Shown: positions 1 to 28,562, numbered from the stretch's first letter. The stretch: DNA of 64,000 bases from Bacteroidota bacterium (GCA_035574455.1 DATLYT010000110.1:8882-72881); one strand, 5' to 3'. The notes: generated by a model not told the origin, from the sequence alone. Numbers and translations: made by a program.

Positions 1-2777
1 TGGATTGTTGTCAGATTCCCCGATTGATTCCACGAGCCTGCAAGCGTCGCGATGTCTATCGTCACATTCCCCCACGAAATGCCTGAAGGTAGAGCCGTTG
101 GGCTTGTTCCTCCATTCGCCCACTTTTTAAAGACGACGGTGCTCGCTGGCTGTAAGATGCGCGTTGTGCCAGGAAAATCCGCGCTGGAGCCGTTTGAAGT
201 GCTTCCGTTGGCGTTATGGATGTACGTTCCGCCGTTGTTCACAGTGAACGTCGTCGCCGTGAACAGAGCCTGCGCCTCCAACGTCGCTCCACTATTGATA
301 GTCACCGCCGATACCGTTGCCGAGGAGGTTAATGTCACAGTATGATTAATGACCACCGACTGATTGGAAAGGGGAACAGTAAGTTGATCCCAGGTCGAAG
401 CATCGCTCCACAGACCGTTTTGGACAGACACGACAGTCGTTGACAACACGACGATCGTACTGCTGGTCGCAGACGCTAAAGTGCCCGAAGATGCAACGAC
501 GGTCCCGCTGCCGGTCGTAGCAGAGCTCAGATTAGTCCAAGACGCGACGCCAGAGCCAGCCGTCTGAGCTAAACCACCAGCATCGGTCGAGGCAAGCGTA
601 AAAGTCGAAGAGGAAAGAGTAACCGTGCCTGCAAAGTCGAGGTCAATATTACCGTTCGCATCTTGAGCAGTCACTTCCACCGGACCGATGTTTTCTCCGA
701 CAAACTTTTGACTCTGGGGTTGTACGGTAAACACAAGCTTCGTCGCCAGAACATCGATGGCATTTTTTCCGCTTGCAGAAACAGCATCGGGAAACGAAGC
801 AAATTGAGAGCTGACCGATGAGTGAGCTGCCGTTACATCACTCGCCCGAACGGCAAAGCGGAAAGCCTGATTGTCTGAGCCTGCTGGTAATGGACTCTTG
901 AGTGAGATTTTAAGAGTGAGAGTTGTCGAGCCATCATCCGGCACTGAAACGGACAAGCCGCTGAATGTAATCGACGTGGTCGAGATTGTTCCACTTGCAC
1001 GATGGGTGCTTCCTTCAAAGAGGTCTGCTGAGAGGATAACGGCACTCCAACTCGCAACGGAGTTTCCCGAAGCCTGTGAAAACGTGATCGCCGTAAGCAA
1101 CGTCGGAAGATTGTCGGTATCAGCAGAGCCGCCGCCATCACGCACACTTATCTGCCACACCTGAACGCCCTGCGAGGTAGAGAGAGGTCCAGCGGTGTTT
1201 TCAAGAGACGAAATTGAATTTGCTTCCGACGAAGGAATAGCGACAACGTCCGAACTTGCGGAGGCGATAACGTTGAAGGACGATGAGAGCGCTTGTGTCA
1301 ACGTTCCGGAGGTCGCTCGAAGTCTCACGCCGTCTTCGACGGTATCGTAACGCAGATCCGTCCACGACGCGACGCCAGCCGTCGGCGAGCGCGTAAGGCC
1401 ACTCACTGCCGAGAGCGTTCCCGTGCCTGTTTCGCGGCTAAGAGTAATATCGGTCGTGTAATCGTGATCGGTATTCTGGTTGGCGTCTTGAGCGGCAACG
1501 GCGACAGAGAAATCAGCATTCAATGGAACCACCGATGGTGGGCTGATCGTAAAAGAAAGCTTCGTTGCAGTGACTTCAATCCGATTTTTGTCACCAGATA
1601 CATCGCTTGTTTGTGCTGAAAACGAAGCAAATCCTGAACTCGTTCCTCCGCTTGCAGCTGACACGTCGCTGCTAGAAATCTGAAATTGGAGCTGCGAATT
1701 ATCGGCGACAGTCGTTTTAAAAGTCAGGTACAGGTCAATCGTTTTCGAGCCGTCGTCCGGAGCTGTGACGCTCGTCCCCGAAAGCCCTGAGAAGACTAAA
1801 CTGGTAGCACCGATGGCGGTTGCATCCGCGATCTTTGTAGACCCATCGAACAACGTCGCTTGACGGATGACTGTGGACCAGTCGGGAATACCATTGTATT
1901 CTCCTTGGGTGATCGTGACAGCAGAGAGAATGGTCGGCAACTCATCGCCGTCCGCGCTCCCACCGCCGTCGCGAATGGTGAAGGACCAGACGCGTACGCC
2001 GTTGGACGTTTCATTGATGGTACTGGATGAGAAGCTCGCATAGTCAATGTTTAGCATCTCGTTATTTGCAGCTTGAATATCAGAAGATGCAGAAAAACCA
2101 TCCGGCGTAAGAGAAAAATCGTCGACGGCAAGACCGTCATCGGAGCCAGAAGCGTCGATGTCAATCCAACGTACCCAAAACGTAGCGCCGTGCGGTAGTG
2201 ACATGCCAGAGATGGTTGAGTTCAATACAACTCGAAACGCAGAGGAATTCCCATCCCTCGAACCTGCTACTCCAGATGTATCCGGGGTTCCAAACGAGAG
2301 ATCCGAAACGGAGGTCCATGTCCCGGTAGTGAGACTCGATGCGTCGAAGCTGACCTCGAATCGAAGTGAATCGAAACGATTTCTCGTCCCTAACCTCCAC
2401 AACTCACCAACATACGAAATGGTAAGTGCCGTTATCGTTCCGTGTGTTATGTTGGTGAAGCTCACACCTATCGTCGGAATCAAACTATTACTTCGCAATC
2501 CCCCAAACGCTCGCTCTGTTGATCCACTCGCACCGAAACTGTAGGTATCCCCAGTTGTACTGCTGCCTGTTCCAGCCGTGTATGTCGTGTTCGCATTCGT
2601 GCCACTTTCACTAAAAGCCCAGCCTGTGGGAAGCGTGCTGGATGGACCTGAATTCGCGAGAGAATTGAAATCCTGATAGTAGGTTGTCCCCAGAGCTGTT
2701 AAACTGACCTGACTCAATCCCGTTGAAGAGAAAGTATAAATGAGCAAACCAAAGACAACGAACAGTGTTCGCCCCAT
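1..2777 (-). CDS. N-terminal part (about 925 aa in window) of a giant secreted repeat protein. The gene continues past the window start and is partial. It has a signal peptide, a lectin-like N-terminal domain and tandem ~170-aa repeats.
   Basis: By-eye translation from the ATG at 2775-2777 (minus) gives MGRTLFVVFGLLIYTFSSTGLSQ..., an open frame all the way to position 1 with no stop. Internal repeats recur in an adhesin-like S/T/G-rich composition (..VRDGGGSADxDxLPTxLxAxTxxQ..SWSxVI..LFxGST..). The ORF track misses it because there is no in-window stop. Confidence 0.55.
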   Translation of the reverse strand, partial: MGRTLFVVFGLLIYTFSSTGLSQVSLTALGTTYYQDFNSLANSGPSSTLPTGWAFSESGTNANTTYTAGTGSSTTGDTYSFGASGSTERAFGGLRSNSLIPTIGVSFTNITHGTITALTISYVGELWRLGTRNRFDSLRFEVSFDASSLTTGTWTSVSDLSFGTPDTSGVAGSRDGNSSAFRVVLNSTISGMSLPHGATFWVRWIDIDASGSDDGLAVDDFSLTPDGFSASSDIQAANNEMLNIDYASFSSSTINETSNGVRVWSFTIRDGGGSADGDELPTILSAVTITQGEYNGIPDWSTVIRQATLFDGSTKIADATAIGATSLVFSGLSGTSVTAPDDGSKTIDLYLTFKTTVADNSQLQFQISSSDVSAASGGTSSGFASFSAQTSDVSGDKNRIEVTATKLSFTISPPSVVPLNADFSVAVAAQDANQNTDHDYTTDITLSRETGTGTLSAVSGLTRSPTAGVASWTDLRYDTVEDGVRLRATSGTLTQALSSSFNVIASASSDVVAIPSSEANSISSLENTAGPLSTSQGVQVWQISVRDGGGSADTDNLPTLLTAITFSQASGNSVASWSAVILSADLFEGSTHRASGTISTTSITFSGLSVSVPDDGSTTLTLKISLKSPLPAGSDNQAFRFAVRASDVTAAHSSVSSQFASFPDAVSASGKNAIDVLATKLVFTVQPQSQKFVGENIGPVEVTAQDANGNIDLDFAGTVTLSSSTFTLASTDAGGLAQTAGSGVASWTNLSSATTGSGTVVASSGTLASATSSTIVVLSTTVVSVQNGLWSDASTWDQLTVPLSNQSVVINHTVTLTSSATVSAVTINSGATLEAQALFTATTFTVNNGGTYIHNANGSTSNGSSADFPGTTRILQPASTVVFKKWANGGTSPTALPSGISWGNVTIDIATLAGSWNQSGNLTTI

Positions 2778-3292
2778 AGCAGTAATAACTGAAGATTGGT
2801 GGTAAAGATACTGGAGAAGAAAAAATTTATTCTGTTAAAATAACGAATGAGATTAAGTATTCTTCACGTAAAACGCAAGTGAAATACTGGCTCAGGGAGG
2901 GGATCTCGAACCACTCCTAACTTACTGCAACCCCTCTCTTTGGCCAATCTGACGTTTGTTTTCAAGACGTGGCCGTGATGCGGGGAGAAAGTGAACCACC
3001 AACAGAACGAAAATTACCTAGCTTTTCACGAAACGGCCTACGAGAACCTTCTAGGGGACGTAAGGATTGAGAATTCTTCGAAACGATTGGAGGGTAATAA
3101 AGTGTGGTGGGAACCTCAAGAAACTACTCATCCCTTTTGAAGGAAGAAAGGGCAATGCAACAGCGATATCTTATTCCGAGAAAAAACTTAGAAGCCGTAC
3201 CTGCAACGAAGGGAGAATTCTTTGAGCCATCATTCAACGCTTTTTGACTCACTCCGAACGTTAAACAAGCGATAAAATCAGCCCGGGGGTGA

Positions 3293-6200
3293 CTATTTCA
3301 TCAGAACCACTTTGCGTGACGCAACAAATCTTCTGCCCGATTCAATCACCACTGCCTCCATCCGCACGAGATAGACACCGCTCGCCTGGTGACTCGCAGC
3401 CCAGACTGTCCTATAGGAACCCGGCCCAACCTGCTCATTGAGAAGTTTCTCGATCGTTCTGCCAAGAAGATTGACGATCTCGATCTTGACCGTACTCCTC
3501 ACTGGCACACCAAACCCGATCGTCGCTACAGGATTGAACGGGTTCGGAAACGGCTCTGTCAGAACAAACTCTGTGGGAACGCTGGCCAGCAACTGTTCAA
3601 CCGCTGTCGGCGGTGTGAGATCGATGGTGAAGGCATTCGGGAGCGTCGCCGTACCGCCACCGGGTGCATTGTTGGTAACGGAAACACTCACCGACCCGGC
3701 AGCGGCAGTCGGTGAAACGGTGATGTTTACCTGCATGCTGGTGAAACTCAACACCGTTTTTGAGTTGACAGTAATGCCGGTGGCAAAACTAGGTTCCGTC
3801 GCATCGGTAAAGAACCCGGTCCCTGTGAAGATCACATTCAGTACGCTCCCCCTTCCCGCGCGGTCAGGAGTGATGCTCGTTAGCGTCGGCACCGGATTCG
3901 TTACGGTGAACGCGTTGGAGAGCGTGGCAACTCCGCCTCCGGGACCGCTATTCGAGACAGAGACCGACCGTGGACCGGTCACAGCGTTCGTATCGATGCT
4001 CACCGTTGCTCTCATTTGCACGCCGCTGAGGATATCCACTGCATGGATGTTGATGCCCGGGCCCAATCCCACAGAACTTATACCAGCGAGGAAATTCGTC
4101 CCGTTGAATAGAACCTGGGCACTTTCCCCACGCGAACCTGAGGTCGGAGCAATGCTGACCAATGTCGGTACAGGATTCAACACTGAAAACGCATTCGGCA
4201 ATGAAGCGACTCCACCGCCCGGAGCTGGATTTGTTACAGTAACCGTAACCGGACCACCGGAGGCAGTCGAGTCAATCCGGATATGCACGCTCAACTGTAC
4301 GGCGCTTACTACTATTAGCGAGTCAACCGTTATTCCTGCCCCAAAGCTGACGGCCAGTCCGGAGACGAACTTCGTTCCGGCAATCGTCACAGTCAGACTT
4401 TGACCTCTCGCACCATTGCTCGGGAGAACAGAAAGAATCGTGGGGATGGGGTTGCCCACCGTGAAGCTATTGACCAGCGTGGCCGTCCCGCCCCCCGGGG
4501 CAGCATTGATGACGGAAACACTATGGGCTCCTAACGCTGCGGTTATGCTAATCCTGGCCCAGACGGTGAGTTGTGTCGGACTTGTTACTCTAACAGAATC
4601 CACCGTAACATCCGCGCCAAAGCTTACCGCAGTGACACCTCCCACAAATCCGGTTCCGGTAATAGTAATGGCAAGGGTATCGCCGCGGGAGCCGCTATTC
4701 GGCGAGATGGTCGTGGCTGTGGGGAGTGCATGAACTGTTGTAAAGCTGAACGGAGCGGAGAATCCACTGAATCCCGACGCATTGGAAGCCCCAACGCGCC
4801 AAGAGTACTGTGTGCTAAAGTTTAATCCCGCCACGGCAAATGCGGTCGTTGCGATGTCCGACTGGTCAAGAAACAGCGTGGAAAAGTCGCTTTGCGTCGA
4901 GACCTGAAGCCGATAGGACGTCGCTCCCTCAGAGGCAACCCAACCGAGGATTGTGTTGACAGGAATCCCCGTCGCTCCATTAGCAGGAACACTGAGGGTT
5001 GGTACAGCCGGCGGAGGGGGTGGCTGTGCCGTGGTCGTGAAACTTCGCACGGTTGAGAAGGGACTGGTTTCACTTCCCTTCGACGCACTTACGCGCCAAT
5101 AGTAGACCGTACTAAATACTAATCCTGAGGCGGCATGGGAAGTGGCAATGATCCCAGCCTGATTCACCACAAACGTGGAAAAATCCGACACCAACGACAG
5201 TTGGAAGGTATACGATGTTGCCCCGGTCGCAGCAGTCCAGCTGAAGGTAGGAGCGGTTGAGACATTCATGGCACCGTCGACGGGCGACAGCAACTGCGGT
5301 GCGGCGAGGACGGTGGTGACTGTACGATAGACGGAGAATGCACTGCTTCCTCCCACATTGATCGCGCTCACACGCCAGACGTACTGCGTCCCGTTCGCGA
5401 GCGTGGGCGTCGTCAAGGACGTATCGGCAACATTACTCTGGTCGATCACGAGGACGGAAAAACTTGTGTCGGTAGAAACCTGCACCCGATACGAGGTTGC
5501 ACGACTTGCGGTGAGCCAACGCAACGTGGGGGTAACCGAGACTCCGGTCGCTCCATCGGCAGGAGACTCGAGCGCGGGGATCGCGGGAGCTGCAACCACC
5601 GTCCGAAACATGCGTGGTGCTGAGAAGGGACCTGTTCCTCCTGTGTTTCGTGCACTCGCACGCCAGTAATAGACCGTATCGTTAAGTAGTCCTGACACGG
5701 AATAGGATGTGGAGGCAATACCGCTCTGGTCAAGCACAAGCGACGTAAAGTCAATTGATAGAGAGAGCTGGAGAGTATAGTCCGTCGCTCCCGGTGTGGC
5801 GTTCCAACTCAACGTTGGACTGACCGGGACATTCGCGGCACTATCGACCGGCATGATCAGTGACGGGGCAACGGGCGGTGCAATAACCGTGGTGAAGCCT
5901 CTCGGCGGTGAGAACGCGCTGGAGCCGCCGGCGTTGGAAGCGGCTACACGCCAGTAGTAGAGCGTGCTATTGCTGAGCCCTGTGACATTCAAACTCGTGC
6001 CGACAATTCCTGTCGAATCTACCATCAACGTGTCAAACAGAGCGTTCTTCGACACTTGCAGACGGTAGTGTGTTGCCGTGGCTGAGACATTCCAACTAAG
6101 CGTCGGATTGATGGGGACATCCACCGCCCCGTCAAGCGGCGAGAGCAAGGTTGGAATGGGCGGTACGAGGTTACCGATCGACAATCGTCCATGTAGAAAT

Positions 6201-7933
6201 GTCGCTGTCGGCGTGGAGGGACCTGGCTCGTTGAACCGGAAGAAGACGAAATTCAGATTGCTCGACTGTCCTATGGTCGCAGTCGGAGCCGGCCGGAATC
6301 GGAGTTTGGCGAGCACACCGCTGCCGGCAAGTGCAGTGGAACCAGCGGAAGCAATCCGGAGTGTGTCCAACGTATCCTTGACCGAGACCGTATAGCCTGA
6401 GCTCATTGTCGATGCAAGAACCACGTCCGAGAACAAGACAACCGACCTGTTGTACGTTATTCTGAGCTCGTACGAGAGCACCCCCAGTCCCGTCACATTC
6501 TCGGTAAACAGTGGAACGTCGAGGGAATCTGCCGGCCCGACGAGTGTATCGGGCAGACTGACCCGAATATCGTTGACGACAATGGAGCCCGTCGTGGCCG
6601 AAAAACTAAAAGAATCGACAACCCTGACGTTCGTCGTCCCTCGAGCCAATGCCGTCAGCAATCCGGTCGACGGATTGATGGAGGCAACCGCGGGGTTCGT
6701 TGACGACCAGGTATAGGCCGGTGTGCCTCCGCTCGTGACGTTGAAGCGGAGAGTATCGCCGCGAGTCAGAATCGCCGTATTGGGAGCAATGACCACCGTC
6801 GGTGCGGCAAGCGGGAAAAACGTTCCATTAACGGTAGTGGCATTAATCGATTCATTGAACAGCACATTGGAGAACGCGACTGTGGTGGAGCCGGATGCCG
6901 TCGCACCCACTCGGAATCGTACATAGACAAGGACGCCGCTCCCACTCAACGGCTGTGTTCCCGCCAGAGCAATATCGATCCGCCCACTACTTGCTTGAAA
7001 CGACGGCGCAGACCAGGTAGAGGTCGCGCTGCCCGCCGTCATGACATCAATCGCCTGGAGCAGATTGGCGTTATAGGTTAGGGAAAATTGACCCGCAATG
7101 ATCCCTAGGCCGGTTACATCTGACATGTAGATCGGAAGGTTAAATTCCAACGTTTGGGTAAACGAGGTGTCGCGAACCATCAGCGTCAGGCTTCGCAGGA
7201 GTGCAGAGTTGATCGGAAAGAGGTTTGTCGAATCGGCAAGACCCCGTGCGTCGTTAACAAAAACCTTGAGCTGCCCCACGCCCACTGCGCGGAGTTTTCC
7301 GTTCTGGTCGATCGTTGCCACGGAAGGATTCGACGACGTCCACGACAGAGGAAGCTGCTGGTCGCCGTTCACACTGAACTGCAACGAGTCGCCCACCACG
7401 AGTGTCGTAGGAGGATTCTTCGGAGAGACCGCGATATTGAGATACCGGAAATAGCCATTGTCGATGCTTGCTGTGGGATTGCCCTCGTTCAGGATTGCCG
7501 AGGGGATTTTGATCGAATCGGTAAGTGCCGAGGGGTTCTGCAAGCCCGCAACTTTGAGGTAGACCAGCACTCCGCTACCCGTAATGAGCGAGCTGGATGC
7601 AAAGGCGAGCCGGCGCGTGGTCGTGTTGTAGAGAACGCTGACCGAACCCTGATTGAGGAGCGATCCTCCAATCTCAATGCCATAGACGTTAAGCACACCG
7701 GCATTGAACGAGAGTGTGAACTGTCCGGAATAGATACTGTCCGTTGTTGCGATCGACGATACCCGAATGGGGATGAGCAGCGTATCCCCCTTCTTCGCCG
7801 TCGTATCGGGAATGGTGAACTGAATGATTCCCGAGGGCAGCGACGAAGCGGTCGACGCGACTGCGCCGAGCAACAGGAAGCCGATGGCGAAGGAGCGGCA
7901 AAGTCGTCTAAGCGTCATGGTGTTCTTATTCAT
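3293..7933 (-). CDS. Multidomain T9SS-secreted surface protein (about 1545 aa): three cohesin-like modules alternating with Big_2-like Ig domains, five FN3-like repeats, four IPT/TIG-like repeats and a C-terminal Por_Secre_tail sorting domain.
   Basis: 1551-aa ORF. The signal peptide starts after MNKNTMTLRRL (ATG at 7933 or 7918; the track's 7948 start is TTG). Cohesin-like modules: GQFTLSFNAGVL..GSGVLVYLKV, GQFSLTYNANLL..GSGVLVYVRF, YELRITYNRSVV..GSGVLAKLRF. Five repeats of PxLxSPxDGAxxV..PTLSW..GATxYxLQVS..TxYYWRVxAxNxGG. Four repeats of P.IxSxxPxSGxRG..xVTIxGTxF...VSFGxGxxV.S. C-terminus NPFNP..GSYRTVW..GVYLVRMEAV. Confidence 0.85.
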   Translation of the reverse strand: MNKNTMTLRRLCRSFAIGFLLLGAVASTASSLPSGIIQFTIPDTTAKKGDTLLIPIRVSSIATTDSIYSGQFTLSFNAGVLNVYGIEIGGSLLNQGSVSVLYNTTTRRLAFASSSLITGSGVLVYLKVAGLQNPSALTDSIKIPSAILNEGNPTASIDNGYFRYLNIAVSPKNPPTTLVVGDSLQFSVNGDQQLPLSWTSSNPSVATIDQNGKLRAVGVGQLKVFVNDARGLADSTNLFPINSALLRSLTLMVRDTSFTQTLEFNLPIYMSDVTGLGIIAGQFSLTYNANLLQAIDVMTAGSATSTWSAPSFQASSGRIDIALAGTQPLSGSGVLVYVRFRVGATASGSTTVAFSNVLFNESINATTVNGTFFPLAAPTVVIAPNTAILTRGDTLRFNVTSGGTPAYTWSSTNPAVASINPSTGLLTALARGTTNVRVVDSFSFSATTGSIVVNDIRVSLPDTLVGPADSLDVPLFTENVTGLGVLSYELRITYNRSVVLFSDVVLASTMSSGYTVSVKDTLDTLRIASAGSTALAGSGVLAKLRFRPAPTATIGQSSNLNFVFFRFNEPGPSTPTATFLHGRLSIGNLVPPIPTLLSPLDGAVDVPINPTLSWNVSATATHYRLQVSKNALFDTLMVDSTGIVGTSLNVTGLSNSTLYYWRVAASNAGGSSAFSPPRGFTTVIAPPVAPSLIMPVDSAANVPVSPTLSWNATPGATDYTLQLSLSIDFTSLVLDQSGIASTSYSVSGLLNDTVYYWRASARNTGGTGPFSAPRMFRTVVAAPAIPALESPADGATGVSVTPTLRWLTASRATSYRVQVSTDTSFSVLVIDQSNVADTSLTTPTLANGTQYVWRVSAINVGGSSAFSVYRTVTTVLAAPQLLSPVDGAMNVSTAPTFSWTAATGATSYTFQLSLVSDFSTFVVNQAGIIATSHAASGLVFSTVYYWRVSASKGSETSPFSTVRSFTTTAQPPPPPAVPTLSVPANGATGIPVNTILGWVASEGATSYRLQVSTQSDFSTLFLDQSDIATTAFAVAGLNFSTQYSWRVGASNASGFSGFSAPFSFTTVHALPTATTISPNSGSRGDTLAITITGTGFVGGVTAVSFGADVTVDSVRVTSPTQLTVWARISITAALGAHSVSVINAAPGGGTATLVNSFTVGNPIPTILSVLPSNGARGQSLTVTIAGTKFVSGLAVSFGAGITVDSLIVVSAVQLSVHIRIDSTASGGPVTVTVTNPAPGGGVASLPNAFSVLNPVPTLVSIAPTSGSRGESAQVLFNGTNFLAGISSVGLGPGINIHAVDILSGVQMRATVSIDTNAVTGPRSVSVSNSGPGGGVATLSNAFTVTNPVPTLTSITPDRAGRGSVLNVIFTGTGFFTDATEPSFATGITVNSKTVLSFTSMQVNITVSPTAAAGSVSVSVTNNAPGGGTATLPNAFTIDLTPPTAVEQLLASVPTEFVLTEPFPNPFNPVATIGFGVPVRSTVKIEIVNLLGRTIEKLLNEQVGPGSYRTVWAASHQASGVYLVRMEAVVIESGRRFVASRKVVLMK

Positions 7934-8000
7934 CGTCAAATGAAGCAAACGGTAATCCTCGTGCAGTTTTGAGAACGCGACCGAGTCACACGAGGGCTTG

Positions 8001-11000
8001 CTACTTCACCAAGATCATCTTCTTCGATGCTGCGTATGTCCATCGATCATCGGCTACTGCATCGATGCGATAGAAGTAGACACCGCTGGAGACTGCATGG
8101 CCTGCTGCATTCCTGCCATCCCAGTTGACCCGGTAGACGCCCGCCGGCTGTTCAGAAGCGACGAGGGTCTGAATCTGCTGTCCCAACATATCGTACACTC
8201 GCAGCGTGACACGACTCTGGACGGGCAGATGGTACTCCAGCGTCGTGCTAGGGTTGAACGGATTGGGATAATTCTGCAGCAGCTCGAACGTCGTCGGAAT
8301 CTCTCTCCGTTGCTCCACGTTGACGACCACCGGCCCTGTTTGCGACGTGAGGTTCGTTTCATTCAACAAGAACCTGGTGAAGGTCAAGGAGAAGGCCGGC
8401 GCCTGTTGCTTCACCTTGAATACGATGGTCACCAAATCGCCTTCGTTGCTTGTCGGGACGGTTCCCGCCAAAGCGACTCGTGCAACGAGGGACTGGAAGT
8501 TATGGAAAAGCATCATGCTATCCGACAAGACAGTTTTCCGAACCTCAACAGGAGCGAGCTGTGTAGAGTCATAGGCAAGATGGATTTCCGTCGAATAGAT
8601 CGGTATGGACCCATCCACGCGAAGTGTCAGATGGAGTTCATCAGCGACAGGCCGTGCGGTTCGGAATTCAAACGCCGCGGTTGTCTCGTTGCCGACAAGT
8701 TTTCCAGCCGGGAAGCCCGTAATTAAGCCAACCACGTAGCGCAGAATCAACGAGGCATCGAACGCCGTGACCGTGCCATCGCCACTAACATCGGCGGCGA
8801 TCGTCTGTGACGGGCTGAGGGTATACAAACTAACGACGGACTGCAAGACCAGGGCGGCATCGAACGCCGAGATCGTCCCGTTCTGGCTGACATCCCCAAT
8901 GAGAATACCCGAACGCGCGGTCAGGAATGGGCGGTACGTCACGGCACCGGGATTCAAGAGAATGCGATTCCCTGTGCCGGTCAGATTTTGGTCTGTACCC
9001 TGATTCACAAACGGACCGCTTGCAGCGCCCCAATAGTTGTTGATCGCGTCAATGGTAATGTTGGTGTTATTGTTGAACCCATAGGTACTGTTGTCCCGAA
9101 TGTTGTTGAACCGCAGGACGGGATTCGACGACCCCTGGGTCAGAATCCCTGTGGGGTTGTTGTGAATCTCATTCGCAGAGAGAGCCGGGGATGAGTTCAG
9201 GAGGTACAGACCGTAGTTACTGCTGAATGAAGAGCCACTAGAATCGATCGGCGCCGTCGTACCGTCGAGGCGGATATTGCCGTTGCCCGTACGACCGCCG
9301 TAGCGCACGATCGTGTTAAAGATGTGGGTTGCATTGTTCGAAGCGCCGTTGAGATAGAGCATATCCCAATCCGCCGGGCCCGGAACGGTGGCGTTGGCGT
9401 CCCCGTTCGTATCTCCACCAAACGAATCATCTTTCCACGACGTGAAAACAATCTTGCTTGCGGAGGTCCCTTCGGATTTGAGAACACCATCCACGCGGAA
9501 TCTGCCGTCCCCACCTGCTGCGCCTCCTACATATTCCCGTGGGAATTTGATCACGGTCCCCGGCGCAATCGTGAGGGTCGCTCCATTGGGGACAAAGAGA
9601 CCCCCACGCACAGCCACGACCTTGGATGTATACCCCGGCGGGAAGGACGCACCCAACAGCCCGAACACCGTTTCCTCCGTCACGAGTACATCGTTGTACG
9701 TATTCCCCGAGATCAAGACATTCTGGTACACGTTGCCGTTTGCCGTGCCCGTGCCTGCTAACGAGATTTGCCCCACCGCGCCGATCGCATACCGGTTTCC
9801 TGTAATCGAATCATCCACCACATAGGCACGGGAGGAGAAAAGTCCGGTTATCACATTATTGCGGATCTTCGTATCGGCGACAATCAACAGCGTATCGATG
9901 GCGTCGTTCCGGGCGACCAGATAGAGACCGTGACCGTTATTGTTACTCACGAGATTGCTAATGACAGAGAAGGGAACCGTATTGTTTTCGACGTAGACCC
10001 CCGTTCCGTTATTCCCCACGATTTCGCAATTCGTCATGACTGCGATCTTTGCCTGGCCTTCTACCCAGAGCCCGTACGCCCCCGCGGTTCTGCCGTTGTA
10101 GAGGAGCTTGGAATGCCGCAGCGTGATGTTCGTGCTGACACGGTCGTACGCGCGAATTCCATGCGTATTACTGCTGTCAACCGTTGTGCTGTCAATCGTG
10201 ATCGGCGTATTGTCGATGACAATCCCAGCCGCCATCGAGCGACGGACGAGGTTGTTCGAGAAAACCATCGAACCGTGGTTCCGGTAGATGTAGACGGTCT
10301 GTACATTATCACGACCCCCATACCGAAATTGACAATGACGAATGCGTGAATTTTCGCTTCCGTCCCGGAACGCGAGGTAATACCAGTCTCCCGGCGCCGG
10401 CGGAACGTAATCGTTCACCGCTGTCGTCTTCCCACCTGCCGTACTATCCCGCCACGATGTAAAGATGATCGGGTTGCCAGGAGTCCCTTCTGCTTTGAGC
10501 GTACCGTAGAGATCGAACGTCTGCCAATTGTTCGTTGGAATCTGCTGGAACTTCATAATTACACCGGGCTCTATGACCAGTGTCGTACCGTTGCTGACCT
10601 GAATATCATAGATGGCAACGTACGTTCTCGAAGTGATCGCGGCAGGGAATCGTACGGAAAGAGTATCAGAGATCGGTCCATCCCAAACAGCAATTGCATT
10701 GTTGTAGGTGTTGCCGCTGATAACGTTTCCATCGTTTCCGTTGTTGTCGGTATAGATATTTCCCAGACGGCGCCAAACCGCAAGCGGATAGCGATTGCGT
10801 TGGATGGCGTTGTCGATGAAGCGCGCGCGGCTGCTGAGAACTCCTTCTCCGGAATGGTCGGAGACAGTATTGCCGATGTAGTTGAGGTCGGTTGCAATGA
10901 CCGTGGAGTTGTTATAGATGCCCCCGTACCCGTTGTTCGTGATCGTGTTACCCTGAAAGACCTGGGGAATGGTACCATTATCCACGCCAACCCCCCATCC

Positions 11001-13655
11001 GTCGTTGTACTGCACGAAACAGTTCGACACTTCGCGGAAGGCAGAGTTATTTACTGCCCGGAGTCCTTCATTTCCATTATATCGGATGAAGCTGTTCCTC
11101 GCTGTCACGTCCGATGGGCGATTCCCTTCGACATAGATGCCGTACGAAGCGTTGCTATCGATGGTGCATCCTTCAAAAGTGACTTTGCTATCCCCGATAC
11201 GGATCCCCATGCTGCTTGACCGCCGTGACACAATATTCCGGATCGGTGTCACTAAATCGACATTGTTCTCAATCCAGAGATTCCCAACATTATCCATCCC
11301 TCCGTACTTGAAGAGAACATTACTCAGTACCGAGTTATTCACGGTGTTGATGCGCAACCGAATGTAGCGCCAGTCGTTGGGCGCTGGAGCAGAATTATCC
11401 GTTGCTGCGTTGGTTTTTCCGCCATAAGAGGCGTCACGGTAGGAGGTGAAGACGATGGGATTAGCGCTTGTGGCGTTTGCAATTAACGTCCCTTCCACGC
11501 GCCAGTACTGACCCGGGTTCATCTTGATGATGACGCCTGGTTCAATAACCAGTGTCTCCCCTGGTCGAATACCCCAACCCGCGCTGTTGTCAATCATGAC
11601 ATAGGTCTTCGAGGTCATGCCCGCCGGTAAAGTGGCTTTCAATGTGTCCGAGAAGCTTTCTTCAAAGCGATCGATTCTCAGCGCAAGAGCGTTATTAAAG
11701 GTATTTCCCGATATGGTGTTGCCGCTATACGTGCTGCCGACACGGCCGAACAGAGCGATAGGGTACCGATTGCCCTGAAGGACGTTATTTCTGATGACCG
11801 CCTTCGAGGTCACTATGCCTTCTTGGCCGTTGTTGAGAATCGTGTCTCCTTCAATCGTCACGATGTTATCTACATTATAGCACCAGAGACCATATGCTCC
11901 GTTATTGGCAATGCGGTTGTAGGCGAAGGTCTGAGCGCCGGTCCCGTACCACAAATAGAGTCCACCGTTGATGTTGTTCGATACGTTAGAGCTATCCATC
12001 GAAACAAGCGTTGCACTCGGTGAACCTGCGTCGGCAACAATGCCATAACTATTACCCGTAAAGGTCGATTTTCGGACGGTGAAGCGGCAACTGCCGCTGT
12101 TCGCATAAATTCCATACCGTCCATTATTGACAGCCGAGATTGCATAAAAAGTAGGGCTTGCAGATTGGATTAAAATGCCGTCGAGACTGTTTGATCCAAA
12201 CGAACTGTTCGACACAGAGGCATTCGCGCCATTATAGAAAAACGCTCCGTAGTATGAACTTTGTGTACTCGTCAGGTTAGTAATGGTCGGCGTTGAGCTT
12301 TCCACGCGAACATTGCCATTTCCGCTTGATCCGCCAAACCGGAAGAGACAGTGACTGAGCGCGCTGATGTTATTTCCACCACCCCGGAGCCAGACCATAT
12401 CCCAATTCCCACGTGCAGGCAGCGTTGCACCAGCATCGCCATTCGAATCTCCACCATACGGATCGTCCTTCTCAGAAGTAAACACGATGAGGTTGGCGGA
12501 GGTACCGTTGGCAATAATCGTCCCGTCTACCGTGAGCCGCGCGGTTGCAGCAAACTTGACGATGACACCGGGGAGGATGATCAAGGTATCACCGCTTGTA
12601 ACGTTAACGCTATTCTTCACCCAGAAAACACCACTGCTCCAGGTCGTTGTCGTTGTGATGTTGGCCGTAATGTTCGTAACAGGCAGCGGCGTCGCGAGGA
12701 TAACCCATGGTTGAAAATCGACATTATCGCTTACGCGATCGCCAAGTCCTGTCGGATTCGTGCCGGGATGATACGGACCCAGTTCGCTCCCCCAATAATT
12801 GTTCCGAGCCAAGACCGTAGTTGTGGTACTCGTATTGAGAAATCCCCAGGTGACGTTGTTGCGGATCGTGTCCTGTGAAATCGTCGGTTGTGTAGAACCC
12901 ACCTGTGTGAACTGAATACCGATGTTGTTATAGCGAATATTATTGCGCTGAACGGTCGGAGAAGCGCTGCCGTCGATGAAGATACCGATACCGTTCGAAT
13001 CGATTCGACTGTTCGTAATGGTCGGGGAAGAGTTAATCGGGACGCGTACTCCGCCTGCGGTATTCTGGATAACGGTACACGAATCGACGATGAAGTTCGA
13101 GAGGAGGTCACTGTACACGCCATAGCCGCTGTTTTGTTGAAAGGTCGAATTGGAAATACGAGGCGATGAGGCACGTGTATTAACGCCATGGCCGGCATTC
13201 GAGCGAAAGAGCACGTAGGAGAGGCCGATATTCGGGGCGCCTGTTTTATAGAACATCCCCGCGGCGTTCGTGCCGCCCCCTGCATACTCCACGACGCAAT
13301 GCTGGAGGGCGGAGTTGACGTCGGCGGTACTTTGAAGCTCAACGCCATTCCAGCTCCCCGGCGTAGGAGAACCAAGGTTGGAGGTGAAGACGATAGGGTT
13401 TCCGGATGTGCCCAGGGCAACGATTTTTCCTGCAATCACAAGCATCTTCCCCGCATTGAACTTCACGGTCGTGCCGGGCTGGATCGTGAGGGTTCGCCCA
13501 GAGGGGACGTACACCGAATCCGCGATGACGGTACCCGCGGTCCACGTCGTATCCGATGCAATGGCGCCTGAGATGGGTGTTTGCCCAAAACTCCAGAGTG
13601 GGATGAGTGTGGAGATAGTGAACCCCAGTGCTCCCTTCAAGAGTCTGTTATGCAT
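8001..13655 (-). CDS. Giant (1884 aa) right-handed parallel beta-helix repeat protein with five tandem ~300-aa modules, a C-terminal dockerin-like double repeat, a cohesin-like module and a T9SS C-terminal sorting domain.
   Basis: N-terminal signal peptide MHNRLLKGALGFTISTLIPLWSFGQ. Recurrent PbH1-like turns (NNxGxGIxxxxS). Five copies of the module ..TLxIxPGxxIKF....GxLxAxGTSxNPIVFTSxxDxxxGGxTNxxxxxxPxPxDWxxIxL. Dockerin-like loops DVSQNGTISAFD and DVSGDGTVTAFD (about 8727-8894). Cohesin-like region about 8306-8654. C-terminus NYPNPFNPST..GVYFYRI. Confidence 0.85.
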   Translation of the reverse strand: MHNRLLKGALGFTISTLIPLWSFGQTPISGAIASDTTWTAGTVIADSVYVPSGRTLTIQPGTTVKFNAGKMLVIAGKIVALGTSGNPIVFTSNLGSPTPGSWNGVELQSTADVNSALQHCVVEYAGGGTNAAGMFYKTGAPNIGLSYVLFRSNAGHGVNTRASSPRISNSTFQQNSGYGVYSDLLSNFIVDSCTVIQNTAGGVRVPINSSPTITNSRIDSNGIGIFIDGSASPTVQRNNIRYNNIGIQFTQVGSTQPTISQDTIRNNVTWGFLNTSTTTTVLARNNYWGSELGPYHPGTNPTGLGDRVSDNVDFQPWVILATPLPVTNITANITTTTTWSSGVFWVKNSVNVTSGDTLIILPGVIVKFAATARLTVDGTIIANGTSANLIVFTSEKDDPYGGDSNGDAGATLPARGNWDMVWLRGGGNNISALSHCLFRFGGSSGNGNVRVESSTPTITNLTSTQSSYYGAFFYNGANASVSNSSFGSNSLDGILIQSASPTFYAISAVNNGRYGIYANSGSCRFTVRKSTFTGNSYGIVADAGSPSATLVSMDSSNVSNNINGGLYLWYGTGAQTFAYNRIANNGAYGLWCYNVDNIVTIEGDTILNNGQEGIVTSKAVIRNNVLQGNRYPIALFGRVGSTYSGNTISGNTFNNALALRIDRFEESFSDTLKATLPAGMTSKTYVMIDNSAGWGIRPGETLVIEPGVIIKMNPGQYWRVEGTLIANATSANPIVFTSYRDASYGGKTNAATDNSAPAPNDWRYIRLRINTVNNSVLSNVLFKYGGMDNVGNLWIENNVDLVTPIRNIVSRRSSSMGIRIGDSKVTFEGCTIDSNASYGIYVEGNRPSDVTARNSFIRYNGNEGLRAVNNSAFREVSNCFVQYNDGWGVGVDNGTIPQVFQGNTITNNGYGGIYNNSTVIATDLNYIGNTVSDHSGEGVLSSRARFIDNAIQRNRYPLAVWRRLGNIYTDNNGNDGNVISGNTYNNAIAVWDGPISDTLSVRFPAAITSRTYVAIYDIQVSNGTTLVIEPGVIMKFQQIPTNNWQTFDLYGTLKAEGTPGNPIIFTSWRDSTAGGKTTAVNDYVPPAPGDWYYLAFRDGSENSRIRHCQFRYGGRDNVQTVYIYRNHGSMVFSNNLVRRSMAAGIVIDNTPITIDSTTVDSSNTHGIRAYDRVSTNITLRHSKLLYNGRTAGAYGLWVEGQAKIAVMTNCEIVGNNGTGVYVENNTVPFSVISNLVSNNNGHGLYLVARNDAIDTLLIVADTKIRNNVITGLFSSRAYVVDDSITGNRYAIGAVGQISLAGTGTANGNVYQNVLISGNTYNDVLVTEETVFGLLGASFPPGYTSKVVAVRGGLFVPNGATLTIAPGTVIKFPREYVGGAAGGDGRFRVDGVLKSEGTSASKIVFTSWKDDSFGGDTNGDANATVPGPADWDMLYLNGASNNATHIFNTIVRYGGRTGNGNIRLDGTTAPIDSSGSSFSSNYGLYLLNSSPALSANEIHNNPTGILTQGSSNPVLRFNNIRDNSTYGFNNNTNITIDAINNYWGAASGPFVNQGTDQNLTGTGNRILLNPGAVTYRPFLTARSGILIGDVSQNGTISAFDAALVLQSVVSLYTLSPSQTIAADVSGDGTVTAFDASLILRYVVGLITGFPAGKLVGNETTAAFEFRTARPVADELHLTLRVDGSIPIYSTEIHLAYDSTQLAPVEVRKTVLSDSMMLFHNFQSLVARVALAGTVPTSNEGDLVTIVFKVKQQAPAFSLTFTRFLLNETNLTSQTGPVVVNVEQRREIPTTFELLQNYPNPFNPSTTLEYHLPVQSRVTLRVYDMLGQQIQTLVASEQPAGVYRVNWDGRNAAGHAVSSGVYFYRIDAVADDRWTYAASKKMILVK

Positions 13656-14157
13656 ATCAGCCTACCTTTCTTCAACAAGAAGACTTGGCGATGCTTGAAC
13701 TGCTACAGTATACGAATAGAGAGCTCGTTGACGGAAGAAGTTGCCGTGATGCACGCACCCGTGCTGAGTAGATGTCGAGAGGAAGGATGAGACGGAGCCA
13801 TTCCCCCGTGGCCTGCATCGGATGTCAATTGTCCGCGATGCTATCCGTGTGCTTATCGAAAGAAGTGTTCTGCTCTGCGCGCAGGTCTGCCGAGGTCAGA
13901 AATAGCGCAATCCTCGAATGACATTTTTCAGGAAATATCGACGATTGAGGATACATGAGATGCCTTCGAGACCGAGGGGAGTCCTGACGGCCTGGTCGGT
14001 TACGAGCGAACGTTACTGATCCCCCAATCAAAAATCAAGTCCCTTTTGGTTAAGAGATTGTCATAGAAGGTCGAGGTTGACCTAGAGCACAGGGAAGGTC
14101 GTAAACCACATTCTTGAAAAAAGCATTTCAAGAGAGATTGTTTTCACAAGTGGGCTA

Positions 14158-14994
14158 TTACCACCCAAATGCATAACTAAGCGCAAAGGTAGCGAGAAAT
14201 TGAGTCTTATGCGTTGAAAGCTCAGATTTCGGTGCATAGAGGAAATAGGGGTTAAACGTCAAGGATAGTTTCTGGCTCAGAGAATAAACCGCAATGAGAT
14301 GGAAGCTTACACTGCTCAAGCCGGTCACCGAAACTGTCGTAGCGGCAGTTCCGGCCTTGGGTAAGGCCTTGCCACTTTGACCTTTATTCTTGGCAAGAGT
14401 CGCCAACACCTCCTGTGACATCCAGGTTGCTTGGATGAGCGGAACGAAGGTAAGGTCGCCTAAGTTTTTCACGGTGGAAACGTTCATCCCGAAGTATCTG
14501 GCACCATTCGTCCCGTCATTTGCCCCAAAGAACGTGTCGTAGGAAAGGCCGACACTCACGATGTCGAAATCGGCATCAAGGGAAAATGAAAGGGAGTTCG
14601 AAAGTGAAGAGAGAATGCTGACGGTGTCGCTCTGATACTCGAAATGTGAAACCTCTGCCCCCAGCGTGAGCCAATCGGAAAAGGTGCGCTCGTATTCCAG
14701 TGCAATGGACCATTGCTGAAATCTCCCACCGCCACCGAGTACATAGATACCATCAAGCTCAAGCCCAAACCCGCTCGCGTGTGCGAGGCTGAAGGAGGGC
14801 TGTAAGGCGGAATTCCGATCGCTGAGCTCGATCCCATAACTCACGTACTGGCTTAGAAATCGGGTACCCAGCGTTGCATCCCATTGAGATTCCGGCTCCT
14901 CTTCTTGCGCGATGGTGGGCATTGAAACAACGATGAGAAAGACAGCAAGCATGAACACTCTTTGAGTTCTCAGGGGAATATCTGTTCTCACCAT
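14158..14994 (-). CDS. Hypothetical outer-membrane beta-barrel protein (278 aa).
   Basis: Signal peptide (MVRTDIPLRTQRVFMLAVFLIVVSMPTIAQ). Alternating amphipathic strands and an aromatic C-terminus (..LSYAFGW). No recognisable catalytic motif. Confidence 0.55.
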   Translation of the reverse strand: MVRTDIPLRTQRVFMLAVFLIVVSMPTIAQEEEPESQWDATLGTRFLSQYVSYGIELSDRNSALQPSFSLAHASGFGLELDGIYVLGGGGRFQQWSIALEYERTFSDWLTLGAEVSHFEYQSDTVSILSSLSNSLSFSLDADFDIVSVGLSYDTFFGANDGTNGARYFGMNVSTVKNLGDLTFVPLIQATWMSQEVLATLAKNKGQSGKALPKAGTAATTVSVTGLSSVSFHLIAVYSLSQKLSLTFNPYFLYAPKSELSTHKTQFLATFALSYAFGW

Positions 14995-15021
14995 GGCTTA
15001 GTGTTGAAAGTTAATCTGCGT

Positions 15022-15061
15022 GAAAATAAAAAATCTCTGCCTCGAATACTCGAGACAGAGA
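15022..15061 (-). terminator. Rho-independent terminator downstream of the 15100..15567 gene.
   Basis: Minus strand reads ATCTCTGtctcgagtattcgaggCAGAGAT followed by TTTTTTTATTTTC. Confidence 0.5.
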
Positions 15062-15099
15062 TTGTGAACATCATCATCGTCGGAAAGGCCAAGACCGAA

Positions 15100-24411: not shown

Positions 24412-24439
24412 CGCTGCACTCCTTTGTCGGTACAATATA

Positions 24440-26790: not shown

Positions 26791-26858
26791 TAGTGCTGTC
26801 TAAATTCTGGAATAATGCTTTGGTATGCAAGACAAAATATGAACGACCTTGCTTTACG

Positions 26859-26988
26859 AGGGCTACCATAATGTCGCCGCTACCGCGGCTACCATTCATA
26901 ATGTTGTTTGGGCTACTACCATAATGCCGCCCCTGACGGGGCTTCCATCTCAACGCTCTTGATATGCTACCAACATTTCGTCCCTACG
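26859..26988. repeat. Dispersed repeat element, family 3, copy 2 (with an internal duplication of the GGCTACCATAATG(C/T)CGCC motif).
   Basis: Shares the GGGCTACCATAATG.CGCC and CTACCAACATTTCGTCCCTACG ends with 19564..19645. Confidence 0.5.
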
Positions 26989-28449: not shown

Positions 28450-28562
28450 GGTTGTTTCTCCTTGTTTTCTATTTCGGTTCATGAACATAGCGTTGCCCGC
28501 CAGAATGTGTAGCGGGCTGGCCCGCCTCTCCGCCAGAGGCGGAGAGGCGGACTCTGCGTGGC

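Follow-up and report, generated by a model that had tools for sequence, protein, structure and literature searches.

Two adjacent genes on one strand of a 64-kb stretch of DNA, the whole of which was analyzed and is referred to here as the window, are best explained as a conserved two-gene surface module of Ignavibacteria-type bacteria. The upstream gene, P1 (8001-13655, (-)), encodes a giant protein of 1884 aa that is predicted to be secreted, and P2 (3293-7933, (-)) encodes a tri-cohesin protein of 1546 aa, likewise predicted to be secreted, in which a long stalk of Ig-like domains leads to a T9SS CTD; both were established from the ORFs, their translations and Pfam and NCBIfam profiles. As the pair has been kept together in about 20 related genomes, it probably builds a protein complex on the outer membrane. 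The reading of this complex that we tentatively favor is a T9SS-exported surface assembly in which the three cohesins of P2 would capture the dockerin of P1, and in which the cohesin that P1 itself carries may cap this dockerin or extend the network.

The arrangement is strictly kept. In all informative homologous loci (20/20) the two genes are adjacent on the same strand, with the P1 ortholog directly upstream of the P2 ortholog (20/20), over a range of P2 identities of 29-63%, and the P1 orthologs are beta-helix proteins of 1607-1960 aa with dockerin, cohesin and CTD (Doc-Coh-CTD) at their end. The loci stem mostly from MAGs labelled Ignavibacteria-type or 'Bacteroidota bacterium', others being labelled Kryptonia or Cloacimonetes; one locus, L009, bears the label Ignavibacterium album. 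Gene content was listed for seven loci, and in all of these the flanking genes differ. The original prediction that P1 and P2 act jointly is strongly reinforced by this adjacency, whereas the contact between dockerin and cohesin is one that we still infer. The pair is probably bicistronic: its spacer measures 67 nt from the P2 ATG (7934-8000, (-)) and shows no terminator-like hairpin, much as had been anticipated (66 nt, no terminator), and the spacers flanking the pair are about 500 nt each (13656-14157 and 2778-3292). The large gene further downstream (2-2777, (-)) was considered as a third member and rejected; it is missing from all homologous loci and therefore lies outside the module. Variants of the locus do occur. 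In the Cloacimonetes-labelled locus L023 the P2 ortholog is reduced to a tri-cohesin head and an FN3-like tail, with no recognizable CTD found, and both here and in L011 an additional single-cohesin gene lies between P1 and P2; in view of these variants, the cohesins are the conserved currency of the locus.

P1, which was found as originally described, a beta-helix protein of 1884 aa, consists of a signal peptide, five beta-helix units, a dockerin, a cohesin and a T9SS type-A CTD, in this order. The predicted signal peptide (MHNRLLKGALGFTISTLIPLWSFG, followed by Q; 13584-13655, (-)) was inferred by reading the translation. Behind it lies a passenger of five tandem right-handed parallel beta-helix units (8961-13583, (-)), delimited by Pfam, self-BLAST and motif positions; the units are about 330 aa each, start near aa 32, 331, 696, 1018 and 1342, and share a conserved '..NPIVFTS..D..GGD.NGD' segment. 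On the whole protein, Pfam yields 189.7 bits for Beta_helix in six stretches and 89.7 bits for NosD. Sequence comparison found no solved relative of the passenger, and an exact look-up of P1 in the assembly index gave no match. Most plausibly, the passenger is a glycan-binding adhesin or a polysaccharide-active protein.

The dockerin of P1 (aa 1587-1641; 8733-8897, (-)) is of type I, as evidenced by PF00404 (38.9 bits for the full-length protein, 45.4 bits for the module by itself, with a cut-off of 22.9), by matches to solved dockerins with E values from 2e-12 to 1e-4 and by an AlphaFold2 (AF2) model with three helices (H23-33, H41-47 and H57-67). It contains two 12-residue EF-hand-like calcium-loop repeats, DVSQNGTISAFD at 8859-8894 (ligand positions D1 S3 N5 S9 D12) and DVSGDGTVTAFD at 8757-8792 (D1 S3 D5 T9 D12), which are 34 codons apart, are each followed by a helix and both carry the motif 'AFDA(A/S)L(V/I)L'. 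In a scan of all six frames of the 64-kb window for the EF-hand/dockerin loop pattern, only these two loops matched, so that their earlier placement at about 8727-8894 was right. Both loops retain the calcium ligands at positions 1, 3, 5, 9 and 12, which most orthologs conserve, and the P1 dockerin is predicted to bind calcium.

The P1 cohesin (aa ~1658-1786; 8298-8684, (-)) directly precedes the CTD. It scores 24.9 bits against PF00963 in the whole protein and 30.2 bits alone (cut-off 24.1), and for a profile built on the family of Doc-Coh-CTD cassettes the best solved cohesin is 2xdh from A. fulgidus (E 2.9e-13). The AF2 model of the module is a beta-sandwich of 8-9 strands with a pLDDT above 90, and a Foldseek search with this model returned many cohesin chains, the single-domain cohesins 2vo8, 2jh2, 3ul4_A, 5nrm_A and 2xdh among them at TMt 0.60-0.68, in a list in which multidomain and unrelated Ig-like chains rank high too. 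Matches to 8jmw (a Bacillus Vpr fibril), C5a peptidase, integrin and chains of this sort were discounted as generic Ig-like and uninformative. For the P1 cohesin, on which this comparison was made, the modeled fold agrees with that of solved cohesins.

AlphaFold2 further places the dockerin and the cohesin of P1 in one fixed unit. The cohesin begins 20 residues past the dockerin, the linker is ordered in the model (pLDDT 79-88), and the pTM reaches 0.89 when Doc-Coh is modeled by itself (216 aa), compared with 0.74 for Doc-Coh-CTD. The P1 dockerin may therefore be self-occupied and perhaps unavailable to P2. Taken to its conclusion, this would mean that the dockerin sits permanently on its own cohesin and that the two form a rigid pedestal close to the membrane, set between passenger and CTD/LPS anchor; the cohesins of P2 would then recruit other dockerin-bearing T9SS cargo or nothing, and P1 and P2 would be neighbors through a shared substrate or surface, not through docking. 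A pTM of 0.89 would indeed be unreachable if domains of 70 aa and 125 aa were placed independently, the proline of a 'GFP' motif just past the dockerin is nearly invariant in 111 cassette proteins from several phyla, and the cassette is found again and again as a unit whose end lies about 94 aa short of the C-terminus. We nevertheless regard a purely intramolecular role as somewhat unlikely. AlphaFold2 groups co-evolving domains whether the true contact lies within a chain or between chains. Moreover, among close orthologs the P1 cohesin evolves faster than any other module (33% mean identity, with 5 of 139 columns invariant) and the dockerin more slowly than any (70%), which is odd for an obligate pair, and the strict adjacency of P1 and P2 over such divergence would be left without a reason.

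P2 had been described as a protein of 1551 aa. This ORF is present with a TTG start (3293-7948), but an ATG start (MNKN...) is more likely and shortens the product to 1546 aa. A signal peptide is followed by a Coh-Big_2-Coh-Big_2-Coh head, five FN3 domains, four TIG-like domains and the CTD. The head comprises cohesin 1 (aa ~30-166; 7436-7846, (-)), Big_2 domain a (7214-7426, (-)), cohesin 2 (aa ~241-376; 6806-7213, (-)), Big_2 domain b (6584-6808, (-)) and cohesin 3 (aa ~450-582; 6188-6586, (-)), the Big_2 domains being recognized by Pfam and self-BLAST. It is followed by a stalk of five tandem FN3 domains with a mutual identity of 47-52% (4715-6178, (-); Pfam and self-BLAST) and four tandem TIG-like repeats with a mutual identity of 45-52% (3623-4726, (-); Pfam, NCBIfam and self-BLAST), for which the NCBIfam name is CoaZ_rpt_PGGG (109 bits). 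Pfam scores for the whole protein are 100.7 bits for Cohesin in three stretches, 60.0 for Big_2 in two, 73.7 for fn3 and 33.5 for TIG. Self-BLAST confirms the repeat numbers, three cohesins, two Big_2, five FN3 and four TIG-like, and the earlier account of three cohesin-like modules interleaved with Big_2 domains and followed by 5 FN3 and 4 IPT/TIG repeats is thereby borne out. The same gene is also called in the Logan contig SRR7882662.

The P2 cohesins are assigned by sequence profile. Scanned alone, cohesins 1, 2 and 3 score 44.5, 45.2 and 37.4 bits against PF00963, so that all four cohesins of the pair exceed the cut-off, and at each of the three positions a profile of the P2 family finds solved cohesins of type I, including CipC cohesin 2vn5_A at cohesin 1 (E 4.9e-9) and 5nrk_A and 4ums_A at cohesin 3. 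The profile searches thus returned Cohesin, Dockerin_1 and the T9SS CTD as first proposed, and not other beta-sandwich families. In self-BLAST all four cohesins lie at a similar distance from each other (26-30% identity), and for this reason the sequence gives no hint as to which of them the dockerin prefers. Each P2 cohesin matches its positional counterpart in the P2 orthologs, and the three are kept at 48-59% identity among close orthologs, near the rest of P2, with cohesin 2 the most conserved (mean identity 0.59, 11 close orthologs).

These figures also bear on whether the modules have a binding partner at all. They might be structural relics, beta-sandwich and EF-hand spacers that help the protein to fold or to pass the T9SS. 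T9SS cargo commonly has an Ig-like domain ahead of its CTD, and the poorly conserved P1 cohesin stands in just this place; in addition, both modules are degenerate in the most divergent P1 ortholog, that of locus L006, where the dockerin (14.5 bits) and the cohesin (19.1 bits) remain sub-threshold. We nonetheless consider modules without a binding role very unlikely, given the intact calcium-ligand positions in both loops, conserved in most orthologs, and given the positional orthology and identity that the P2 cohesins retain at the membrane-distal N-terminal end, where a spacer makes little sense.

Both proteins end in a T9SS type-A CTD with PNPFNP and GVY motifs and a basic-hydrophobic terminus. 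In P1 (QNYPNPFNP ... SGVYFYRI ... KKMILVK; 8004-8270, (-)) the domain reaches 32.9 bits with TIGR04183 (cut-off 23), 41.9 bits with FlgD_ig and, alone, 29.4 bits with Por_Secre_tail (cut-off 27). The CTD of P2 (FPNPFNP ... SGVYLVRM ... RKVVLMK; 3296-3565, (-)) scores 31.0 bits with Por_Secre_tail (PF18962) when scanned alone, again with a cut-off of 27, and TIGR04183 on the whole of P2 gives 20.9, just under its cut-off of 23. The Por_Secre_tail originally assigned to both proteins was thus recovered in each CTD. Outside the pair, the window also holds a gene for a PorV/PorQ-family T9SS outer-membrane protein (27403-28488, (-); NF033709 145.5 bits with a cut-off of 90, Pfam PorV 37.9), and a T9SS is therefore encoded in the same genome, with the remaining machinery outside the 64 kb. 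A 1193-aa protein adjoining this gene has a CTD as well.

In the assembly that we propose, P1 and P2 would cross the inner membrane by Sec, directed by the signal peptides at their N-termini, and would then pass the outer membrane through the T9SS, which would recognize their CTDs. By analogy with characterized T9SS type-A cargo, the CTD would be cut off and the new C-terminus linked to anionic LPS, so that both proteins would stay on the cell surface. P2 would act as the scaffold, its nine Ig-like domains (5 FN3 and 4 TIG-like) forming a stalk that keeps the N-terminal head, with three type-I-like cohesins and Big_2 spacers, away from the membrane. P1 would be the client, with a passenger 1,540 aa long that is built of five beta-helix units and a two-repeat, near-symmetrical calcium-loop dockerin that plugs into the cohesins of P2; as these are three, up to three P1 could be held per P2. 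The P1 cohesin may cap the dockerin until a P2 cohesin takes its place, or may take the dockerin of another molecule and so extend the assembly. Several observations speak against a capture of P1 by P2: AlphaFold2 holds the P1 dockerin with its own cohesin, the cassette is generic, and the L006 modules are sub-threshold. Furthermore, as P1 and P2 would each be anchored independently, P1 would stay on the cell even without a dockerin tether.

The generic nature of the cassette became clear from its distribution. With 1,153 cluster representatives at E<=1e-10, the P1-type Doc-Coh-CTD tail is widespread in FCB-group bacteria (Ignavibacteria, Kryptonia, Cloacimonetes, Marinimicrobia, Zixibacteria, KSB1, Latescibacteria and Rhodothermia) and is borne by hundreds of different, unrelated passengers in host proteins of 283-4626 aa. 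Among the recorded passengers it is Ig-like, PKD, VCBS, beta-propeller and beta-helix domains, rather than CAZymes, that predominate. Given a cassette that is generic on so many passengers, the dockerin of P1 is no P2-specific adaptation. It is conceivable, although we find it doubtful, that the tail represents a general self-complementary plug-and-socket pedestal that links varied T9SS cargo, with P2-like tri-cohesins as hubs and the P1-P2 operon as its core; cohesin-dockerin chemistry would then be a widespread organizer of the Gram-negative surface and not a cellulosome speciality. We found no discussion of the dockerin-cohesin-T9SS CTD architecture in the searchable literature.

With both modules present in each of thousands of cargo proteins, the dockerin of one might also bind the cohesin of the next, giving rise to chains or a surface layer in which dockerin-less multi-cohesin proteins such as P2 are hubs or branch points. 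The putative recognition positions 'A[FY]DAS', conserved throughout the family and in both dockerin repeats, suggest promiscuous dual-mode binding, L006 has further cassette genes clustered close to the pair, and self-recognition with multimerization has been shown experimentally for the Amy4 protein (PMC4611034). This evidence is however purely architectural, and the 20-residue linker is long enough for binding in cis, a competitor of chain formation; we therefore consider such a lattice unlikely. If the modules do bind as predicted, this would explain the organization of many T9SS cargo proteins on the outer membrane and provide new orthogonal pairs of cohesin and dockerin with which proteins could be displayed on the surface of Bacteroidota-type hosts, and if binding occurs in cis only, the cassette would exemplify a cohesin-dockerin pair turned to structural use within a single chain.

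The description of the pair as cellulosome-style holds for its architecture and not for its function, as enzyme and carbohydrate-binding domains were not found in it. P2 has the form of a non-catalytic multi-cohesin scaffoldin, with three cohesins and no catalytic domain found, but no CBM such as scaffoldins carry is present among its Pfam/NCBIfam matches at E<=0.1. Likewise, the 64-kb window holds no dockerin-bearing carbohydrate-active enzyme; its sole dockerin carrier is P1, which matches Beta_helix/NosD only and no GH, PL or CE. In common with clostridial and ruminococcal cellulosomes (C. thermocellum CipA/OlpA; C. cellulolyticum CipC, PDB 2vn5), the pair employs the PF00963 and PF00404 families, a dockerin with two near-symmetrical calcium-loop repeats as in type-I pairs and, as in anchoring scaffoldins, several N-terminal cohesins ahead of a C-terminal surface anchor. 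It differs from them in its Gram-negative FCB-group host, in an anchor that is a T9SS CTD (LPS-linked by analogy) and not SLH or sortase, in the own cohesin of P1 and in having one dockerin gene nearby. Beta-helix folds include pectate lyases and further polysaccharide-active enzymes, and P2 might accordingly be a scaffoldin that gathers dockerin-bearing polysaccharide-degrading enzymes, P1 among them, into a true multi-enzyme machine for plant or algal polymers. The combination of multi-cohesin scaffold, dockerin partner and surface anchor follows the logic proposed for Ca. Stygibacter (PMC8542988). With a single dockerin in 64 kb, no GH, PL, CE or CBM found in P1 or P2, a passenger without a solved relative by sequence and mostly non-CAZyme passengers on record for the cassette, we consider this very unlikely. 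In the Melioribacter genome paper, the cellulases are without dockerins.

Nearly all characterized cases of cohesin-dockerin assembly come from Gram-positive bacteria that produce cellulosomes or amylosomes, and for the Gram-negative FCB group there are in-silico proposals only. The 'cellulosome-like' system described in silico for Ca. Stygibacter (Cloacimonadota) by Williams et al. 2021 has a 3,755-aa scaffoldin with tandem cohesins, CBM2/CBM3 and a T9SS CTD, and its clients are a chitinase, an amylase and peptidases (PMC8542988). Both systems, known in silico, combine an FCB-group lineage, a tandem-cohesin scaffold with a T9SS CTD and dockerin-bearing secreted proteins, and P2 orthologs are present in Cloacimonetes-labelled MAGs. 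Unlike the Ca. Stygibacter system, P1-P2 consists of two genes in a fixed arrangement, with a beta-helix giant that looks non-catalytic and a Doc-Coh cassette in cis. While T9SS-anchored cohesin scaffolds had thus been proposed in silico, the conserved adjacency of P1 and P2, the widespread Doc-Coh-CTD cassette, the predicted fixed Doc-Coh unit and the fast-evolving P1 cohesin are new. With two genes, one dockerin and four cohesins, conserved over deep divergence, the locus is a compact test case.

A close parallel to a dockerin and a cohesin in one secreted polypeptide, a combination that P1 shares with A. fulgidus AF2375, is the R. bromii amylosome protein Amy4, which has a C-terminal dockerin and the cohesin Coh1. 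The cohesin of Amy4 binds its own dockerin as well as those of other proteins, and a separate anchoring cohesin protein, Sca2, provides Amy4 with a further docking site (Ze et al. 2015, PMC4611034), so that the logic proposed here for P1 and P2, a self-cohesin plus a separate cohesin protein, resembles that of Amy4/Sca2. In contrast to Amy4, in the arrangement described in that paper, P1 has a tight cassette of dockerin, 20 aa, cohesin and CTD; Amy4 is Gram-positive and sortase-anchored, and its self-recognition was measured, whereas that of P1 is predicted. The cohesins of the Clostridium perfringens toxin complex (NagJ/NagH; PDB 2jh2, 2vo8, 2w1n) are likewise non-cellulosomal and reside in large secreted multidomain proteins. 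Note that NagJ/NagH are Firmicute glycosidase toxins with FIVAR-dockerin partners and, unlike P1, lack both a T9SS CTD and a dockerin in cis; C. perfringens cohesins are nevertheless among the best structural matches to the P1 cohesin in Foldseek, with TMt values of 0.65-0.68.

The two long minus-strand reading frames of the region in the ORF listing encode P1 (8001-13655, 1884 aa) and P2 (3293-7933). The original prediction took them for a dockerin-bearing protein and a multi-cohesin scaffold exported by type IX secretion (T9SS), and its description of both proteins proved accurate in every checkable detail. The translated N-terminus of P1 is signal-peptide-like, and the passenger is built from five tandem right-handed beta-helix units of about 330 aa that are mutually 28-39% similar by self-comparison; Pfam assigns P1 to Beta_helix (189.7 bits, six stretches) and NosD (89.7 bits). 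The passenger shows no catalytic signature in Pfam and no solved relative by sequence, and it is interpreted here as an adhesin that binds glycans or as a polysaccharide-active protein of a kind not yet characterised.

At the C-terminal end of P1 follow, in this order, a dockerin (45.4 bits against a curated Pfam cut-off of 22.9), a cohesin (30.2 against 24.1) and a T9SS sorting domain (Por_Secre_tail, 29.4 against 27). In both calcium loops of the dockerin, DVSQNGTISAFD (8859-8894, minus strand) and DVSGDGTVTAFD (8757-8792, minus strand), the residues at positions 1, 3, 5, 9 and 12 are acceptable ligands, and a six-frame scan of the 64-kb window for this kind of loop gave no match beyond these two. 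P2, most likely starting at the ATG at 7933 and thus 1546 aa long, has a Coh-Big_2-Coh-Big_2-Coh head after its signal peptide. There follow five FN3 domains, a set of four TIG-like repeats that NCBIfam assigns to CoaZ_rpt_PGGG (109 bits) and, at the C-terminus, a sorting domain. The three P2 cohesins, Coh1, Coh2 and Coh3, score 44.5, 45.2 and 37.4 bits (cut-off 24.1), and the P2 Por_Secre_tail 31.0 bits (cut-off 27), so that each dockerin, cohesin and Por_Secre_tail module of the pair stands above its curated threshold when scanned alone. With TIGR04183 the expected sorting signal was recovered for P1 (32.9, cut-off 23), but whole P2 remained below the cut-off at 20.9. The spacer of about 66 nt between the two genes was likewise borne out (67 nt counted from the ATG), and the terminator scan found no terminator-like hairpin within it.

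These assignments were reproduced by independent means. The last 319 residues of P1 match solved dockerins directly by sequence (E 2e-12 to 1e-4), and a profile built from 111 homologous tails recovers dockerins and cohesins as well as FlgD-Ig and PorU CTD folds, the best cohesin being the non-cellulosomal Archaeoglobus fulgidus 2xdh (E 2.9e-13). AlphaFold2 on the same alignment yielded, with confidence (pLDDT 90.9), three helices, a sandwich of 8-9 strands and a 7-strand C-terminal domain (CTD). A Foldseek search of the PDB with this model returned many cohesin chains, although chains of multidomain and of unrelated Ig-like proteins also stand high in the list; the single-domain cohesins (C. 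perfringens NagJ/NagH, OlpA, ScaB, A. fulgidus) reach a TMt of 0.60-0.68. A profile of P2 homologs matches solved type-I cohesins separately at the positions of Coh1, Coh2 and Coh3.

About 60 full-length homologs (29-57% identity) make up the family defined by the tri-cohesin N-terminal head of P2. The named relatives of P2 mostly derive from MAGs under the labels Ignavibacteriales, Ignavibacteriaceae or Ignavibacterium album, or under the plain name 'Bacteroidota bacterium'. Seven contigs of the family were examined by gene context, and 15 genome loci by tblastn with parts of P1 and P2. At 20 of the 20 independent loci with sufficient upstream sequence (L013 was too short and was left out), a beta-helix protein of 1607-1960 aa ending in the dockerin-cohesin-CTD (Doc-Coh-CTD) cassette is encoded directly upstream on the same strand, while flanking genes differ in all loci for which genes were listed. 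Among these loci are one from a Kryptonia-labelled MAG (L004) and one from a Cloacimonetes-labelled MAG (L023). Two loci carry an extra gene between P1 and P2. In L011 it encodes 427 aa (2055-3338, plus strand) with a signal peptide, a cohesin-like module and an FN3 domain, the cohesin-like module being called by tblastn similarity to P2 Coh3 with no Pfam cohesin at E<=0.01; in L023 it encodes 279 aa (9146-9985, plus strand) with a signal peptide, a cohesin and a CTD. The P2 ortholog of L023 (10001-11929) consists of the tri-cohesin head and an FN3-like tail without a recognisable CTD. Because of these variants and the strict adjacency, sequence comparison identifies the beta-helix giant with its Doc-Coh-CTD tail and the tri-cohesin head as the conserved core, and the stalk and anchor of P2 as the variable parts of the module.

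By architecture, the 279-aa protein of L023 is a minimal outer-membrane-anchored single cohesin. Three distant P2 orthologs (P0153, P0152 and P0147; L023 10001-11929) combine the tri-cohesin head with one FN3-like domain and end in '..FYYVTAVN' or similar, with no recognisable T9SS CTD; two of the three derive from Cloacimonetes-labelled MAGs or were found alongside them. Locus L006 encodes two more cassette proteins less than 9 kb from the pair (14611-15450 and 17846-18670, minus strand), one a 1036-aa protein containing ASH/HYDIN Ig domains, the other 636 aa long; the P1 of this locus has a degenerate dockerin (14.5 bits) and a degenerate cohesin (19.1 bits).

We propose that P1 and P2 would be exported by Sec and then T9SS and be retained on the outer membrane, where the nine Ig-like domains of P2 would form a stalk presenting its three cohesins to the near-symmetrical dockerin of P1. 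The motif 'AFDA[AS]L', present in each dockerin repeat, suggests dual-mode binding. P1's own cohesin might cap the P1 dockerin or take up another dockerin. AlphaFold2 on the Doc-Coh part alone (216 aa) gave a pLDDT of 91.8 and a pTM of 0.89, a value beyond the reach of independently placed domains of 70 and 125 aa, so that according to the model dockerin and P1 cohesin belong together, in a contact that fits a within-chain or a between-chain arrangement alike. The 20-residue linker is ordered (pLDDT 79-88), and in the 'GFP' motif directly after the dockerin the proline is nearly invariant family-wide. Mean pairwise identity among 11 close orthologs is 0.70 for the dockerin and 0.59, 0.50 and 0.48 for Coh2, Coh3 and Coh1, respectively, but only 0.33 for P1's own cohesin, where just 5 of 139 columns are invariant. 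In P1, the beta-helix part from the window shares 55-68% identity with that of these orthologs. As judged from these identities, P1's own cohesin is under less constraint than any other part of the system. The P2 cohesins retain positional orthology and normal constraint. This asymmetry mildly favours them as functionally important sockets; a cis clasp is still compatible with it.

The P1 tail extends far beyond this pair. Among 8,000 scored candidates, more than 5,400 proteins match the 319 residues at E<=1e-3, with source names including Ignavibacteriae, Marinimicrobia, KSB1, Zixibacteria, Latescibacterota, Poribacteria, Rhodothermaceae and Bacteroidota, and with N-terminal domains as varied as Beta_helix, PKD, VCBS, CarboxypepD_reg, Big_9, LVIVD and propellers. 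An exhaustive search of 1.84 billion cluster representatives with Doc-Coh alone gave 9,961 matches at E<=1e-3, of which 1,153 reach E<=1e-10. Among the best 150, about 90 cover both modules, dockerin and cohesin, in a single stretch ending some 94 residues before the C-terminus, in proteins of 283-4,626 aa; the remaining 60 or so are multi-dockerin proteins with 3-11 dockerins. By its matches, the Doc-Coh-CTD tail is a common and very widespread cassette. Many metagenomic proteins (P0206, P0211, P0212, P0214, P0217 and others) carry 5-11 tandem copies of the P1-type dockerin, with ten dockerin stretches in the 762 aa of P0206; this arrangement is inverse to that of a scaffoldin, and such proteins could cross-link many cohesins.

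Cohesin-dockerin pairs outside cellulosomes are already known. The logic proposed here is that of R. bromii Amy4, which unites a cohesin and a dockerin in one protein. For Amy4, self-recognition and docking to Sca2, an anchoring cohesin protein, are both established experimentally (PMC4611034); for P1 and P2 the corresponding contacts are inferred. For Ca. Stygibacter (Cloacimonadota), a cohesin scaffoldin anchored by a T9SS CTD, together with dockerin-bearing enzymes, has been proposed, in silico only (PMC8542988), and the general idea is therefore not new. Unlike a cellulosome, the P1-P2 system has no CBM and no dockerin-bearing CAZymes in view, and thus lacks two defining features. No description of the Doc-Coh-CTD cassette was found in the literature searched. 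New are the strictly conserved two-gene module, the recognition of the P1 tail as a very widespread cassette, and the prediction from the structural model that this cassette forms a fixed unit.

The T9SS reading of the C-terminal domains of P1 and P2 is consistent with the genome, as a PorV/PorQ-family protein (145.5 bits against a cut-off of 90) is encoded in the window and, preceding it within 27403-32144 (minus strand), an adjoining protein of 1193 aa, which has a T9SS CTD and matches the PorZ C-terminus weakly but no other family. By its position, the latter may be a divergent PorU/PorZ-like component of the attachment complex. On either side of the P1-P2 pair lies a non-coding spacer of unusual length, about 500 nt (13656-14157 and 2778-3292); neither holds a sigma-70-like promoter on the coding (minus) strand in a scan that excludes Bacteroidota-type promoters. 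A third large secreted protein (2-2777, minus strand) lies 515 nt downstream of P2 and runs off the window start; its at least 925 aa include a signal peptide and an internal duplication of about 275 aa (43% identity), with no Pfam or NCBIfam match and no counterpart of the gene in any homologous locus. An envelope-type run of genes (22181-26953, minus strand), placed between a gamma-glutamyltranspeptidase gene and the T9SS genes, encodes an NHL-repeat protein, a protein with a GWxTD domain (93 bits) and an 837-aa protein with a PIG-L-like deacetylase domain. By protein comparison, housekeeping proteins encoded in the window have identical counterparts in a TPA MAG, 'Bacteroidota bacterium' (HXG38184-HXG38216; contig of 83,878 bp). 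The minus strand from about 38900 to 63900 holds ordinary housekeeping genes, a cluster for ribosomal proteins, SecY, RpoA, EF-Tu and EF-G, within which a 1339-aa reading frame is found at 59874-63893.
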